A stretch of DNA of 64,000 nucleotides from an uncultured Clostridia bacterium. GTDB taxonomy: Bacteria > Bacillota > Clostridia > TANB77 > CAG-508. Within the stretch, counting starts at the first letter, position 1, and the number at the start of each line of letters is the position of its first letter. The notes beneath the pieces were generated by a model. That model ran no database searches, had not been told where the DNA came from, and saw only the letters and a program-made list of their open reading frames with translations. This document shows positions 2,936 to 8,700 of this stretch, one piece after another. The stretch is from positions 109,542 through 173,541 of the forward strand of contig CAKPRG010000003.1 in the NCBI GenBank assembly GCA_934182465.1. The letters run 5' to 3'. The translations under genes were made by a program, and so were the position numbers.

Positions 2936-4588
2936 CTATTTGCTATTTTCTTCTTTATTTACTCCAACTGCATAAATTACAAATGCAATTAAACTTATAA
3001 TAGAAATAATATTCGCAATTTGCTCTAAATTTGATTTTTGATATGTTACCTCTATTTTAGCATCATCATTTGCACCCAAAACAAACCCTAAAAATCCATT
3101 TTCTGTTTCTATACTCTCTAAAGTTATTCCATCTTCTTTTACTACATACCCAGGATAATATATATATGGCAATTCGAATTTTGTTTGCTCTTCAAATGTT
3201 TTTACTTTTGCAGAATACTCACTGCCATTTTTATTTTCATTTTCTATTAAAGCTTTTCCTTCCAATACGCACATTTCTTGTGTTCTTGTTGCTATATAAA
3301 ATTTATTATAATAGGCTTTAGTTGGCAAATATTCTGCTTTATTTATTCCTGCAGAAATTTCATCTACTTTTCCTGAAATATTTCCTAATTCCATATTTTC
3401 TATATCTGTTAAATTTTCTGTATTTTGAATATGTCCACTTAAACAAATTATATATGCCATTGATACTACTAATAATATTAAACTATCTTTTAATTTTAAG
3501 TTTCCAACAATTGCTCCCATATTTATAGCACATACTATTGTTAGGAAAAAGTTTGCCAAAGTTAGAATTCTCCATGGAAATTGCAATTTTACAAAAATTC
3601 TTGCAAAAATATTTATAGAAAAAATACTAGTTGCGCAAATAAATCCTAATATACAAAATATTAAATAAGTAATATAATCTTTTTTATATTCATTTTTTAG
3701 TTTTACAAAGGCCATTGGTGTTAAAGCAAACATCGCTATTAAAAGTGGCCCAACTTCAAATACATAATTTTCTTTTTGTGCTGTTACAAATAACTTTCTA
3801 ATTGATATTGTCTGTCTTGAAAACCCTTGTATTTCTTCATTTGTAACATTATTTATTTTATAATCTTCTCCAATTGTTGCTTCAAAATATGGCAACCATA
3901 TACAAGCTGTTAATATTAAAATAAAAGCAAAACTCAAAATCACTTTTGACAATATTTTATTATTTTTAATTTCTTTAATATTTACAAGCAAATAAATTAT
4001 TGATATTCCAAATACTATCCAGCTCAAACTTCTATCACACATAAACATTAGAGCTAAACTTATTGGAAATAAATAATGTTTTCTTTCATTGTTTTTTAAA
4101 CTATATAAGCCTAAAAAAGTAATTGGTAAAATTGCCAATGCTAAATGTTCTGAAAATGCATTTCTAACATATATTTCTGTTAAATGATATGGTAACATCA
4201 TATATATTCCAGCTGCAAGAATTCCAATATTACGATTTTCGGAAATTTCTTTTACTAAACAATACATTGTTATTCCAGATATAAACAGAGTTATTACTTC
4301 AAGTAATTTAAAACTTGTTATAGGATTTTTAAATACTAAATTAGTTATAGCTAATAAAATATCTGGAAATCTATTATTAAAAATACTATTTATGTATCCA
4401 AAATTATTTGCAAAACTTGGAATAATATTACTAAAAACACCAATTTTGCTTAGTTCGTAAGACTTTGATATATAATTTATTCCTTCACCTATATAACAAT
4501 TAAATGTATTTGAAACTATCGGTAATGACAATAATATTGTTATTACTATTAATATAACAATATATAATATTTTTTTCTCTTTTTTCAC
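2936..4588 (-). CDS. polytopic integral membrane protein, possibly glycosyltransferase-like (family unassigned)
   Basis: 550 aa, many predicted TM helices, large C-terminal extracytoplasmic domain. Confidence 0.4.
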   Translation of the reverse strand: MKKEKKILYIVILIVITILLSLPIVSNTFNCYIGEGINYISKSYELSKIGVFSNIIPSFANNFGYINSIFNNRFPDILLAITNLVFKNPITSFKLLEVITLFISGITMYCLVKEISENRNIGILAAGIYMMLPYHLTEIYVRNAFSEHLALAILPITFLGLYSLKNNERKHYLFPISLALMFMCDRSLSWIVFGISIIYLLVNIKEIKNNKILSKVILSFAFILILTACIWLPYFEATIGEDYKINNVTNEEIQGFSRQTISIRKLFVTAQKENYVFEVGPLLIAMFALTPMAFVKLKNEYKKDYITYLIFCILGFICATSIFSINIFARIFVKLQFPWRILTLANFFLTIVCAINMGAIVGNLKLKDSLILLVVSMAYIICLSGHIQNTENLTDIENMELGNISGKVDEISAGINKAEYLPTKAYYNKFYIATRTQEMCVLEGKALIENENKNGSEYSAKVKTFEEQTKFELPYIYYPGYVVKEDGITLESIETENGFLGFVLGANDDAKIEVTYQKSNLEQIANIISIISLIAFVIYAVGVNKEENSK

Positions 4589-5105: not shown

Positions 5106-5248
5106 TTTATGCCCCTTTTATATTATAAATTTATATATTTTATAATATAATTTTAGTTCTAAATTGTCAATGAAATTTAAAATAAATTATAGCAAAGTTT
5201 GGCATAAGCATTTGTTTAATAAAAATTGCACATTACTTTCTATTAAAG

Positions 5249-5345: not shown

Positions 5346-5528
5346 TTACTTGCTTTTTTTTGCAATTACTTCTTTTCCATCATAATATCCACAATTTGAG
5401 CAAACTGTATGTGGTAATACAGCTTCGTGGCAATGAGGACAAGTTGCTAAATTTTTTGCTTCGATTTTCCATGTTGATCTTTTTAAACCTGTTCTAGCTT
5501 TTGACCATCTTCTTTTTGGTTGTGCCAT
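5346..5528 (-). CDS. rpmF: 50S ribosomal protein L32
   Basis: MAQPKRRWSKARTGLKR... with C-x2-C...C-x2-C zinc ribbon; strong RBS. Confidence 0.92.
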   Translation of the reverse strand: MAQPKRRWSKARTGLKRSTWKIEAKNLATCPHCHEAVLPHTVCSNCGYYDGKEVIAKKSK

Positions 5529-5695
5529 TTTAAATCCCTCCTTTAGCTATTTATAAAGTATATATCAAAATATAATTTTACCTTAAAGTTACTTAAATAG
5601 TATACAATCAAATTTCTATTTTGTCAATACTTTAGAAAAAATATTCCTAATTTGCATTTACTTTACAGAATATATTTAATTTTTTATTTGATGAT

Positions 5696-6397
5696 TTAAT
5701 CTTTTTTACAATTTTCTATAAAATTTAATATTAATTTTTTCATATTTTCATCATATAAAGACATATCTTCTGGGTGCCATTGTACTCCTATTGCAAATTT
5801 TTTATCTTCAAATTCTAATCCCTCTATTAAACCATCTTCTGAAATAGCATTTATTTTTGCATTATTTACTTTTGTTACTGCATATTTATGTCTGCTATTT
5901 ACATCTATTTCTTCTTTTTCTATTATTTCATATAATTTGCTATCTTTTTCAATTTTAACTTTATGGACATATTTTGCTGGTATTTGATTATGATTAATTT
6001 CTTTTTCTATAAATTGTAATATATTGCCTCTTTCTTCACCACAATCGATACTTGCTAGTAATTGCATTCCCATACAAGTTCCTAATACTGGTATATTATT
6101 TTCTAGTACATATTTTGCACAAAAAATATCATAATCATATATTCTATTTCCACCTGGCAAAATAATTCCATCACATAATTTTATTTGTTGTATTAGATCT
6201 TGTTTTTCTTCTTCTGTAAGTTTTCTTGCTTCTCTTGGTCTTGTTTCTTCAAAACATATATCTTGTGTAGGCATAATTAATATAGGAATTCCTCCACAAT
6301 TAGAAACAGCCCTTCTATATCCATCTAAAGCACACATACAAGTTCTATCTGTGTATGTTGTATGTGATTTTGCTATAATTCCAATAACTGGTCTCAT
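5696..6397 (-). CDS. class I glutamine amidotransferase-like / peptidase C26 gamma-glutamyl hydrolase (PuuD-like)
   Basis: Catalytic GTCMGMQ and VQWHPE motifs. True ATG at 6397 with AGGAGG RBS placed 1 nt after the stop of the upstream gene; the longer track ORF uses a TTG inside that gene. Confidence 0.75.
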   Translation of the reverse strand: MRPVIGIIAKSHTTYTDRTCMCALDGYRRAVSNCGGIPILIMPTQDICFEETRPREARKLTEEEKQDLIQQIKLCDGIILPGGNRIYDYDIFCAKYVLENNIPVLGTCMGMQLLASIDCGEERGNILQFIEKEINHNQIPAKYVHKVKIEKDSKLYEIIEKEEIDVNSRHKYAVTKVNNAKINAISEDGLIEGLEFEDKKFAIGVQWHPEDMSLYDENMKKLILNFIENCKKD

Positions 6398-6407
6398 ACT
6401 TCCTCCT

Positions 6408-8492
6408 TTATTTATCTGGATCACCCCATAAATCAAGTGTTTTTTGCATATCTTCTTTTGTTCTTGGTTCTAGTAATTCCTTAGTAGCTACTCTGACTCC
6501 GTTTAATTTTTCTGAAAACATTCTTACTGCATCATTTCCTCTATTGGGTGAATATCGTAAACTTCCATTTTTCATTTTATTTGTCGCAATTTGCTGTTGC
6601 AAACCACCATTTTCTGCTCTTAGCCTTTCTATTTCTGATACTCGTTTCGTTCCATTTCCAGCTACTGCTAGCAAATTTCTTCCAGGTTCAGCATTTATTT
6701 TTGCTTGTGCTAATTTTAATATATGTTCTTTTGAAAAACTTTTTAATTGACCATTTTGTCCTTTACTACCAAAAATATTAGTTATATTATTATACAAATT
6801 AAGCATTTCCGGTGTAAAATTTCCATCAAATTCTGTAATTGCACAAGCATATAAATCTGCTAATATATCTTTTACACTATATCGTTCTTTTTCTTCTGGT
6901 ATTTCTGTCATAATTGCTTCTGCTTTTAAATCAATATTTTTAAGTTTTTCATCTTTTAGTTCGTCTTTACCTAGCAATTTCCCAAAGAATCCTACTTTTT
7001 CTGTTTGTATTGTTTCTCGTTCTGAATTTAGTTTACCAAGTTTTGCGTTTTTAATTACTTGATTTGCTTTTAAATACAAGCTTCTTTTTAGTTCATATTC
7101 CATTTGATTTGCATGAATTTGAGCAAAATCAGGATTTCCTTGTAATATTTGACTTGCATAAGATATACCATCTAAATATGGAGAATATTTTTCAGTTTTT
7201 TCATCAATTTCTTCTTGTGACATATCTTCTTGCACAGTAACACCTTGTAAATTTTTTTCTATATCAGTAATATTAAAAGTTATATCTTCAATTATATTAT
7301 CTAATAAATTTACTCTTGTTTGAGGTTGAAAATTTATTCCTAAAGAACGTGCTATTTGTTGCATATTTCTTTCATTATATAGCATTTGATTATATGTATC
7401 ATTAATTTTATATGTAATTCTATTAGACTCAACAGGTTCATTGTTTAATTTTTTTCCTAATTCTGTTATTGAGCTTTTTCTTCTTTCTTCAATTTCAGCT
7501 TTTTCCCTTGCTATTCTTTCCTCTTCTAATCTCTTTTGTTCTGTCTCTTTTCTAGCTATTGCTTCTTGCTTTGCTCGTTCTTCTGCCTCTTTTTTTGCTT
7601 GTTCTACCATTTTTGTTGCTTCAGAAATTTCTTTTATTTTTTGAGCACATCTTCCTTGTAAATATTTTTGTAATCTTTCAGTATAACTTGATGTTTTACT
7701 TTTAAATTCATCAACTAATCTTTTATCTTCTTCAATTTTTTCTTTCAAAAATTCTATATCATCATCATCCAAAGTTCTAGACAAAGAAGCCTCATGACTT
7801 TCAAGTCTTCCTATTTGCTTTTCATATTCTTTTATATCAGCTAAATTTTGTTCAAATCCATCATATACATCATCTTCTAAATCTTTCATTTCTTCATCCG
7901 AAACATTACGAACTCCAGGATTATAAACTGTAAAATAGCAATAATTAAAATCTCCTCTTGTACTAAATTCTTCTCTTTTAGCAACTTTAACAAATGGTGC
8001 TAAAATTACTTCTTTTTCATCTCTTCTATTAGGATCTCTATAATCATCTACATTTAAAAATGGTACACCACTAGCAACTTCCATCTTAAGTAAAGTTCCC
8101 GTTTTTCCATATTCACAGAAAGATTTTGCAACTGTTTCATCTTTGCTTATTGATATAAATTGCTTTGCTGTTCCAAGTAAAGCCTTTGCTCTTTCTAAAC
8201 TTGTTCCTCTATACAAATTTCTACTCTCTGTGTATCCAATACTGTCTTTTAAGCTCTTCTTTTGAGATGTTTTATACATAGCAGAATATAAATTAACAAA
8301 ATCTTCTATATCTTCTCTTAAATACTTTTCTCCGCCAGACCAATCGCAAATATGTGATACTTCTCTATATGCTTCTGGTGTAAAATCTGCTAGCATATTT
8401 ATTCTAGGATGTTTATAATTCAAATAATTATCAATTGAGTTTCTTTCTTCACTAGTTACATTTAATATTTGTTTTGCTTCACTTAACTCCAT
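6408..8492 (-). CDS. cytoplasmic multidomain protein with N-terminal ADP-ribosyltransferase (R-S-ExE, ADPrib_exo_Tox-like) domain, central coiled coil, unknown C-terminal domain
   Basis: NLYRG (Arg), FISIS (STS-like) and DEKEVILAPF (ExE) motifs with canonical spacing; no signal peptide; KE-rich coiled coil around residues 290-350. Confidence 0.6.
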   Translation of the reverse strand: MELSEAKQILNVTSEERNSIDNYLNYKHPRINMLADFTPEAYREVSHICDWSGGEKYLREDIEDFVNLYSAMYKTSQKKSLKDSIGYTESRNLYRGTSLERAKALLGTAKQFISISKDETVAKSFCEYGKTGTLLKMEVASGVPFLNVDDYRDPNRRDEKEVILAPFVKVAKREEFSTRGDFNYCYFTVYNPGVRNVSDEEMKDLEDDVYDGFEQNLADIKEYEKQIGRLESHEASLSRTLDDDDIEFLKEKIEEDKRLVDEFKSKTSSYTERLQKYLQGRCAQKIKEISEATKMVEQAKKEAEERAKQEAIARKETEQKRLEEERIAREKAEIEERRKSSITELGKKLNNEPVESNRITYKINDTYNQMLYNERNMQQIARSLGINFQPQTRVNLLDNIIEDITFNITDIEKNLQGVTVQEDMSQEEIDEKTEKYSPYLDGISYASQILQGNPDFAQIHANQMEYELKRSLYLKANQVIKNAKLGKLNSERETIQTEKVGFFGKLLGKDELKDEKLKNIDLKAEAIMTEIPEEKERYSVKDILADLYACAITEFDGNFTPEMLNLYNNITNIFGSKGQNGQLKSFSKEHILKLAQAKINAEPGRNLLAVAGNGTKRVSEIERLRAENGGLQQQIATNKMKNGSLRYSPNRGNDAVRMFSEKLNGVRVATKELLEPRTKEDMQKTLDLWGDPDK

Positions 8493-8700
8493 ATTTTTTC
8501 TCCTTTAATTGTATTTATTTTATAAATATAATAGAAAAAAGTCAATATGCAAAGTTGGACATAAGCATTTATATAATAGAAAGTACAAAGTACTTTCATA
8601 TTATATTAAAAAGATGACAATTCCTTTTAGAATTGCCACCCTACAAAATATTAATATTTAATTAATATATAAATAATTCAATTAATATTATTAATTATTA

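Follow-up and report, generated by a model that had tools for sequence, protein, structure and literature searches.

To our knowledge, nearly all R-S-E ADP-ribosyltransferases (ARTs) studied so far either belong to phages or are toxins, which are secreted or come with a partner protein that provides immunity or erases the modification. Alt of phage T4 modifies host proteins on infection, and DraT regulates nitrogenase by reversible modification. CmdT is a precedent for an ART with a function in phage defence (PMC11618068). Here we describe an ART gene in a 64,000-nucleotide (nt) stretch of contig CAKPRG010000003.1 from an uncultured Clostridia bacterium; this whole stretch, which has a G+C content of 25.8%, is called the window. 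The gene was picked out in an initial annotation of the window, and the coordinates given there (6408..8492) enclose a real and complete open reading frame (ORF), running from ATG to stop (stop codon 6408-6410) in the ORF list and its translation; the strand, which had been left unstated, is minus. The product is 694 amino acids (aa) long, and near-copies with 98-100% identity are found on many gut metagenome contigs.

The N-terminal R-S-ExE ADP-ribosyltransferase domain

The three motifs that led to the initial assignment are all present: NLYRG at aa 92-96, FISIS at aa 112-116 and DEKEVILAPF at aa 158-167. They lie in the N-terminal domain (aa 1-200; 7893..8492, minus strand), where the catalytic codons, on the same strand, are those of R95 (8208-8210), S114 (8151-8153), S116 (8145-8147), E159 (8016-8018) and E161 (8010-8012). 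The spacing had been likened to that of C3, iota and VIP2, and this holds only approximately. The distance from S114 to E159 is 45 aa, as proposed, but that from R95 to S114 is 19 aa instead of about 23, and is shorter than the 37-54 aa between the corresponding residues of CTX, MTX, ModA and Scabin (PMC8120803).

In searches against Pfam, NCBIfam, PHROGs, PADLOC and PDB sequences, the 694-aa protein gave low-complexity noise only. Accordingly, the PF03496 profile, proposed earlier as a check, did not match the window protein itself; it did match a 36%-identical homologue, P0007, which is alignable with the window protein end to end and scored 28.2 bits over aa 11-174 against a gathering cutoff of 23.4. 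Three of the seven N-terminal domains tested matched this profile, with a best E value of 6e-8. The membership of the window protein in PF03496 is thus transitive, coming through its homologues and the structural model and not through a Pfam score of its own.

The motifs are conserved over long evolutionary distances. Among 19 sequences down to ~25% identity, the Arg was present in 18, and S-x-S/T and E-x-E in all 19. When we compared representatives of 115 clusters at 50% identity, the complete R-S-E-E set was intact in 103, and the beta1 Arg in its aromatic-R-G setting (L-Y-R95-G in the window protein) was kept in 110. At the S-T-S positions, the first S was found in 106/115, the middle T in 93/115 and the third S/T in 105/115; the window protein has Ile in the middle (S114-I-S116). 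The two Glu residues of E-x-E (E159-K-E161) were kept in 110/115 and 109/115, respectively, and a few distant relatives lack the E or the R. Other conserved residues in the domain are the helix motif Y23..H28..I-N32, Y69, P144 and P166-F167.

An AlphaFold2 model of aa 1-215, built from a seven-sequence alignment, shows a single domain of ART fold with a predicted local distance difference test score (pLDDT) of 80.3 and a predicted template-modelling score (pTM) of 0.75. In this model R95 is on beta1 (93-98), S114-S116 is on beta2 (113-116), and E161 is at the start of the beta5 strand after the ADP-ribosylating turn-turn (ARTT) loop. Because the motifs fall on the expected strands of a confident model and are conserved across the family, they are not a chance match. 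The nearest structural relatives are toxins, namely the Lmo0066 ART-ARH effector, Tre1, VIP2, iota-like toxin and C3. Profile similarity through a homologue, structural similarity and motif conservation were therefore all found, and the assignment of the N-terminal ~200 aa as an R-S-ExE mono-ADP-ribosyltransferase domain of the C3/VIP2/iota (PF03496) type is well supported by sequence and model. All residues for NAD (nicotinamide adenine dinucleotide) binding and catalysis are conserved, and the domain is probably catalytically competent. The ExE form of the motif suggests that the modified residue would be arginine.

Linker and C-terminal domain

The head is followed by a helical linker (aa 201-345; 7458..7892, minus strand) that contains 48% K/E/R/Q and no Pro. 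Within it lies a conserved junction motif, LQKYLQGRCAQKIKEI (aa 274-289; 7626-7673, minus), in which L278, G280 and C282 are conserved; the pattern in the family is L-Q-G-x-C-x-Q-K-x-K-E-I. The coiled coil of ~60 aa rich in K and E that had been proposed corresponds to a charged stretch that does exist at aa 284-340 (7473-7643, minus). Its composition, 65% K/E/R/Q without Pro or Gly, looks more like that of an ER/K-type single alpha-helix spacer than that of a heptad coiled coil. Database matches of the linker were limited to weak low-complexity similarity of the ZorA/TolA type, and the sole PADLOC match of the whole protein was a weak coiled-coil similarity to ZorA (E value 0.004). The length of the linker differs among homologues.

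The remaining part, aa 346-694 (6411..7457, minus), is a family-specific domain that is confidently predicted to be all helical. As the initial annotation had stated, this part is unrecognised: its ~350 aa gave no sequence-profile match and no specific fold match. The domain is highly charged, and in many family members it ends in a T-x-[DE]-L-W tail. The absence of a signal peptide also held, as the mean hydropathy of the first 30 residues is -1.1, and no segment of transmembrane grade was found in the 694-aa protein by Kyte-Doolittle hydropathy (maximum 19-residue mean, 0.6). The protein is thus predicted to be cytoplasmic.

Allele replacement, head exchange and disrupted copies

The ART gene of the window was compared with those of the sister species L009 and L010, which lie at the same locus. 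GroEL is 94-98% identical, Der 92-93%, the neighbouring adenosine deaminase (ADA)-like protein 90% and the neighbouring integrase 77-78%, whereas ART is 36% identical. Between L009 and L010 themselves, the flanks are 78-95% and ART 36% identical. The same was seen at an unrelated locus, spoVB-nadD-ART-nadE, where flanks of 55-79% accompany an ART identity of 33% (L011 versus L018), and flanks of 77-84% accompany one of 34% (L029 versus L018). Family-wide, ART identities are star-like at 30-38%.

For closer pairs of alleles, the ratio of nonsynonymous to synonymous substitution rates (dN/dS) was 0.2-0.26 in all three regions of ART and 0.02-0.1 in the flanking genes, and ART evolves 3-10 times faster than its neighbours. 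The synonymous divergence (dS) of the flanks between the window and L009 is 0.4-0.8. Since a dN/dS of 0.2-0.26 at such a dS cannot yield 36% identity, the alleles must be imports by recombination; ART has been replaced repeatedly by ~35%-identical alleles through recombination in the conserved flanks.

An exchange of the head alone, together with the promoter region, was observed in one near-identical strain, L005, and its borders are sharp. The tract, which covers the leader and the ART head from aa 1 to ~280 (7650..8800), was delimited by DNA identity and dS: identity is 64-84% between ~8800 and ~7650 and 94-100% over nearly all of the remaining 8.5 kb, and dS is 0.65 in the N-terminal domain, 0.12 in the C-terminal domain and 0.06 in the ADA-like gene. 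From aa ~281 onward the two proteins are ~100% identical, and the downstream border of the tract coincides with the conserved LQKYLQGRCAQKIKEI motif.

The head can also be substituted entirely. Four relatives, P0142, P0156, P0143 and P0160, keep the linker and the C-terminal domain and have N-termini unrelated to ART, and P0080 carries an extra N-terminal extension of 360 aa. The alternative heads matched nothing in Pfam, PADLOC or PDB sequences; a ParB/Srx-like identity that we considered for the P0142 head was not supported by these searches. The P0142/P0184 relative (696 aa, with a different head of ~310 aa; L023:1091-3181 and L024-L026:10001-12091) is carried by an integrative mobilisable element within a GH94 gene, together with AbiEii, relaxase and transposase fragments, TnpV/NikA-like genes and a large serine recombinase. 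The ORFs of 119 aa and 291 aa that flank this relative have weak PADLOC matches (orphan methyltransferase and mad6).

At codon 346, exactly at the boundary between the linker and the C-terminal domain, the window gene has a tract of seven A residues (7449..7455, minus). An A8 variant in the independent assemblies L021 (~11040) and L022 splits the gene into ORFs of 351 aa and 325 aa, and the tract of L005 is A6. Such length changes could act as a slipped-strand switch that turns the protein on and off or uncouples its domains. The ART copy of L010 is split into 595 aa and 82 aa, and the copies of L033 and L034 are frameshifted. Because frameshifted and disrupted copies recur, the ART gene must be dispensable; judged from these copies, it is non-essential and accessory.

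Family distribution and genomic contexts

The family proved to be large when 1.84 billion representatives were searched exhaustively with HMMER: at least 354 clusters at 50% identity passed an E-value cutoff of 1e-3, of which 274 also passed 1e-10 and 146 passed 1e-30. The members are mostly 620-700 aa long and match end to end. A word-indexed protein search under-reported the family (10, 2 and 5 matches), and a metagenome scan gave only four loci. All 12 matches among GTDB species representatives were metagenome-assembled genomes of uncultured Clostridia or Clostridium from human and mouse gut, and as far as sampled the family is confined to AT-rich gut Clostridia. By tblastn, no homologue was detected in 50,697 INPHARED phage genomes or 72,556 plasmids, and no relative was found in IMG/VR. 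We found no family name for any member in public sources.

The surroundings of the gene were surveyed in 13 independent neighbourhoods. Some are related to mobility or conflict: int-ADA-ART in the clade of the window, ADA-ART (L035), int-ART (L017), dinB-ART-int (L030), ART-Fic and the mobile element described above. Where a Fic gene lies directly downstream of ART (L037:8103-8708; L038:7285-7890), its product corresponds over its full length to the PADLOC defence candidate PDC-S04 (5e-66); an AAA+ ATPase is encoded upstream at this locus. Other neighbourhoods are of the housekeeping type, including spoVB-nadD-ART-nadE in three genomes (L011, L018 and L029), ART-guaA (L016, L020 and L033), czcD-ART-NUDIX-ygjV (L027/28), ART-pta (L015), a SecA region (L012-14) and AIM24 (L008 and L019). 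The recurrent linkage of ART with NAD biosynthesis genes or NUDIX could reflect a functional tie to NAD/ADP-ribose metabolism or merely conserved insertion sites.

No constant partner gene, ADP-ribosylhydrolase (ARH), macrodomain or other conserved immunity neighbour was found in the 13 contexts, and the only recurring neighbour, at two sites, is the ADA-like gene. The initial annotation had placed the gene in an operon with partners that might hold it in check. This idea did not stand for the family, because ART has a promoter-like site of its own and is preceded by a terminator-like hairpin, and its neighbours differ from context to context.

Neighbouring genes and regulatory sequence in the window

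On the minus strand, the gene order is groES-groEL, tyrosine integrase, ADA-like gene, ART, class-I glutamine amidotransferase (GATase), rpmF, dCMP deaminase, PTPS-related membrane protein, der and plsY. The ADA-like gene upstream of ART (8701..11187, minus) encodes 828 aa with a Pfam A_deaminase match (1.5e-19), and its HxH and HAGE motifs are intact and conserved. Its C-terminal ~190 aa are also strongly conserved ('IIAGGSFNxKGRE ... AFDGNSP'). They gave only weak matches, to SIR2 (6e-4, in L035) and CARF_Card1 (0.04), and a SLOG, LOG or CARF identity for this domain was not supported by Pfam and PDB searches. The PADLOC CARF_ADA model matched the deaminase part only (1.5e-15), and the RdrA and RdrB models of PADLOC matched neither the ADA-like protein nor its neighbours. 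Besides the groEL/rpmF locus of the window clade, ADA-like and ART genes are adjacent at a second, unrelated site upstream of rimP-nusA (L035:805-3294), where the ADA-like protein is 59% identical. At that site, GC-rich palindromic copies of ~27 nt (GGAAAAGGGGACGGTTCTCTTTTCC and variants; L035:3295-3461 and 5463-5560) flank ART and resemble REP-like or terminator elements.

The GATase, or peptidase C26, gene (233 aa; 5696..6397, minus; Pfam PF07722, 4e-33) is PuuD/Lin1909-like in a PDB sequence search. It starts 10 nt past the ART stop with no terminator-like site between, and the two genes are probably co-transcribed. The leader of ART (8500..8642, minus), analysed by direct reading and consensus scans, contains a terminator-like hairpin after the ADA-like gene (8611-8642), a perfect palindrome GAAAGTAC-TTT-GTACTTTC (8579-8597), a promoter-like TTGACT-17-TAAAAT (8517-8545) and a putative ribosome-binding site AAAGGAG (8500-8506), all on the minus strand and all assigned as consensus matches only. 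With a hairpin and a promoter-like site before ART and no terminator before GATase, the likely transcription unit is ART-GATase and not ADA-ART-GATase. No riboswitch or other RNA family was found in the leader. A 49-nt direct repeat, 82% identical, occurs upstream of ART (8549-8597) and upstream of the dCMP deaminase gene (5192-5240). An operator common to these two genes was considered and dropped, since only the ART leaders of this strain group contain the palindrome.

We also considered whether GATase is an immunity protein and rejected this: it does not co-vary with ART (98% identical in L005, 79% in L010, replaced in L009), and it is missing in most contexts of the relatives. In L009 its place is taken by an unrelated ORF (L009:12043-12729) whose 228-aa product has a hydrophobic segment at the N-terminus and matched nothing in Pfam or PADLOC, and therefore the replaced tract there covers both genes.

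The tyrosine recombinase/integrase gene (310 aa; 11467..12399, minus; Pfam Phage_integrase, 3e-28; PHROG 1 integrase, 2e-56) is at the groEL-proximal end of the insert and is kept at this locus in the sister species. No tRNA attachment site for it was found within 20 kb, and the int-ADA-ART insert has neither a tRNA gene nor a clear att repeat at its bounds. The region between groEL and the integrase gene contains a short direct repeat (AGAGGTTGTGGTTG...; 12675-12796) and a strong terminator-like hairpin (12810-12844). The ART-adjacent integrases of the three lineages are mutually unrelated, with 26-29% identity. Silent cassettes or extra copies of the shufflon type were dropped from consideration, there being no second ART copy in the window. 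The PTPS-related membrane protein beside der (550 aa; 2936-4588, minus) is only 56-58% identical between sister species, whereas the products of the neighbouring genes (dCMP deaminase, der and plsY) reach 86-93%.

Proposed role and alternative explanations

The population features described above are those of conflict-driven, frequency-dependent selection, and no immunity or secretion determinant accompanies the gene; together they make a self-contained conflict effector the most economical explanation. We tentatively prefer this explanation, in which the protein is an intracellular effector of the defence type; its conflict role, which we infer, is quite possible, and the effector would probably be directed against phage or other mobile DNA. 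Conflict-type neighbours, namely the tyrosine integrases (window, L017 and L030), the PDC-S04 Fic protein and the ADA-like protein at two sites, count in its favour. In such an effector, the helical C-terminal domain would bind a partner or trigger, oligomerise, or both, the rigid ER/K spacer would set the reach, and the ART head would mono-ADP-ribosylate a protein target with NAD+. The effector would generally be independent of neighbour genes; in the window clade, the linked ADA-like deaminase may be a second, co-travelling effector. A more elaborate form of this proposal is doubtful but conceivable: the linker and C-terminal domain would be the chassis of an intracellular polymorphic effector, with exchangeable heads shuffled at the junction motif and the poly-A tract as an off-switch, so that a single protein is both immunity sensor and effector and, in the window clade, cooperates with a new co-travelling ADA-like nucleotide deaminase.

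Several observations weigh against a defence role. In about half of the contexts the gene is part of a tight housekeeping operon and not of a defence island. The ART protein has no meaningful PADLOC match and, with no Pfam match at E <= 0.1, reaches no Pfam threshold. Selection is not positive over the gene as a whole (dN/dS ~0.2), and the divergence, instead of being concentrated in a sensor, is even over all three regions. The A8 frameshift recurs, and its product, ART and linker without the C-terminal domain, is evidently tolerated. A lethal toxin could therefore not be restrained by the C-terminal domain alone; the tolerated form argues that this domain may be needed for targeting or activation and is not only a toxin brake.

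The housekeeping contexts raise the alternative that the protein is an endogenous regulatory ART like DraT, which would reversibly modify host proteins to tune NAD/nucleotide metabolism or another core process, its helical domain localising the enzyme. The gene sits with gaps of 1-17 nt in housekeeping operons, several of which are linked to NAD or nucleotides (nadD-ART-nadE, NUDIX with the YgjV membrane protein, guaA downstream), and in the window it is near GATase, ADA-like and dCMP deaminase genes; the conserved architecture and purifying selection would also fit. It is difficult to reconcile a regulator, however, with sister alleles of 33-37% identity at the same locus between housekeeping flanks of 78-98%, with a head-only swap between near-identical strains, with recurrent frameshifted copies, with the lack of a linked ARH or macrodomain eraser in the contexts sampled, and with non-ART heads in some relatives on a mobile element, and we consider regulation rather doubtful. 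An exported toxin acting on competing bacteria or host cells is unlikely. Its linker and C-terminal domain would form a delivery or secretion-recognition module and the ART a polymorphic warhead, for which the C-terminal XVIPCD domain of Xanthomonas type IV secretion system effectors and single-chain AB toxins with N-terminal enzymes are analogues. The closest structural relatives are indeed toxins, and the polymorphic head with its conserved junction motif, the relatives with alternative heads and the common T-x-[DE]-L-W tail would suit a toxin, but the protein has no signal peptide, transmembrane segment or LXG/WXG-type domain, there are no secretion genes nearby, and the highly charged C-terminal domain is not membrane-active. 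A co-varying immunity gene is also lacking, GATase being unchanged at the head swap and the neighbours unrelated across lineages.

It is quite unlikely that the gene is a weapon or counter-defence factor of integrative or mobilisable elements, made by them or transferred with them to modify proteins of a recipient or host, as T4 Alt does on infection. The non-ART-head relative carried by an integrative mobilisable element that also contains a serine recombinase and a relaxase fragment, the integrases adjoining ART in three lineages, and the resemblance to Alt in size (~690 aa) and R-S-E ART (PMC8120803) speak for such a role; the lack of homologues in the phage, plasmid and IMG/VR collections, and the fact that most ART-bearing members are in chromosomal operons without mobility genes, speak against it. 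The signal-generating role suggested in the initial annotation would take the form of a two-gene ADA-ART system, in which an NAD-derived product or mark is sensed or used by the ADA-like protein, followed by deamination of adenine nucleotides. Both Cad1 and RADAR deaminate ATP in defence (PMC11645235, PMC9994260) and provide a precedent. The adjacency of the genes at two unrelated chromosomal sites, with an ADA identity of 59%, the intact ADA motifs and the conserved ADA C-terminal domain with its weak Rossmann-type hints are in line with this system. We nevertheless regard it as improbable, since most family members have no ADA neighbour, the two genes are separated by a terminator-like hairpin and an additional promoter-like site, ART alleles were swapped while the ADA-like protein stayed 90-99% identical, and its C-terminal domain could not be assigned in Pfam and PDB searches. 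Furthermore, we know of no R-S-E ART that acts as a signal synthase. Finally, a catalytically dead ART-like scaffold might be suspected from SIS in place of STS, from scores below Pfam thresholds and from the loss of E or R in a few distant relatives. This is extremely unlikely, as R, S, E and E are intact in the window protein and in 90% of the representatives across ~25-35% identity, and the first and third S-x-S/T positions are conserved.

Comparison with known systems

The enzymatic domain is familiar; as far as the literature and libraries consulted show, no description exists of the protein's architecture, of its family or of how the family evolves. The family is large and unnamed, occurs in abundant uncultured gut Clostridia and consists of cytoplasmic ARTs whose three-part layout is fixed. 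Ancient alleles swapped in conserved loci, head swaps, head substitution on a mobile element and recurrent frameshifts are the behaviour expected under frequency-dependent conflict. A role in defence or conflict would make the protein a new ART-based mechanism with a new helical recognition module, and would offer access to the interplay of phages and hosts in a part of the microbiome that is difficult to study. A role in regulating NAD or nucleotide metabolism would instead make it a rare example of endogenous signalling by ADP-ribosylation in Firmicutes.

The head resembles the C3/VIP2/iota-type R-S-E ARTs (PF03496, ADPrib_exo_Tox) in fold and motifs. Unlike these exotoxins, the window protein lacks a signal peptide and is accompanied by neither a B or translocation component nor a protective antigen-like neighbour; its R-to-S spacing is 19 aa, and it falls below Pfam detection. 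The binary toxins C2, iota and VIP2 have a duplicated ART domain, in contrast to the single N-terminal ART of this 694-aa cytoplasmic protein. In the Listeria Lmo0066 ART-ARH effector (PDB 8za7) and the Serratia Tre1-Tri1 pair (PDB 6drh), the toxin is C-terminal or attached to secretion carriers and an ARH immunity gene is adjacent, whereas the window ART is N-terminal, with no secretion determinant seen and no linked ARH or macrodomain in the 13 contexts. Alt of phage T4 (682 aa) is similar in size, in combining an R-S-E ART with extra non-catalytic regions and in having an intracellular bacterial protein target. It differs in that there is no detectable sequence similarity, the family has no homologue in phage collections, and the window gene is chromosomal and not virion-associated.

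Among defence systems, RADAR RdrB and Cad1 are likened to the neighbour of ART, which is also a large protein of the adenosine deaminase family with extra domains, here beside an integrase gene, and whose deaminase part matches the CARF_ADA model; unlike RADAR and Cad1, the window has no RdrA ATPase, no RdrB model match, no recognisable CARF domain and no CRISPR locus nearby. CmdTAC requires an antitoxin and a SecB-like chaperone, both of which are absent beside the window ART. Neither CmdTAC nor CapRel-SJ46 or DSR2 has a sequence or fold relationship or a PADLOC match to the window protein, and the sensor of CapRel is hypervariable, whereas all regions of the ART family diverge equally. The likeness to CapRel-SJ46 and DSR2 is one of analogy only, and consists in an enzymatic, toxin-type head joined to a helical C-terminal region, the lack of a separate immunity gene, fast evolution and the exchange of heads.

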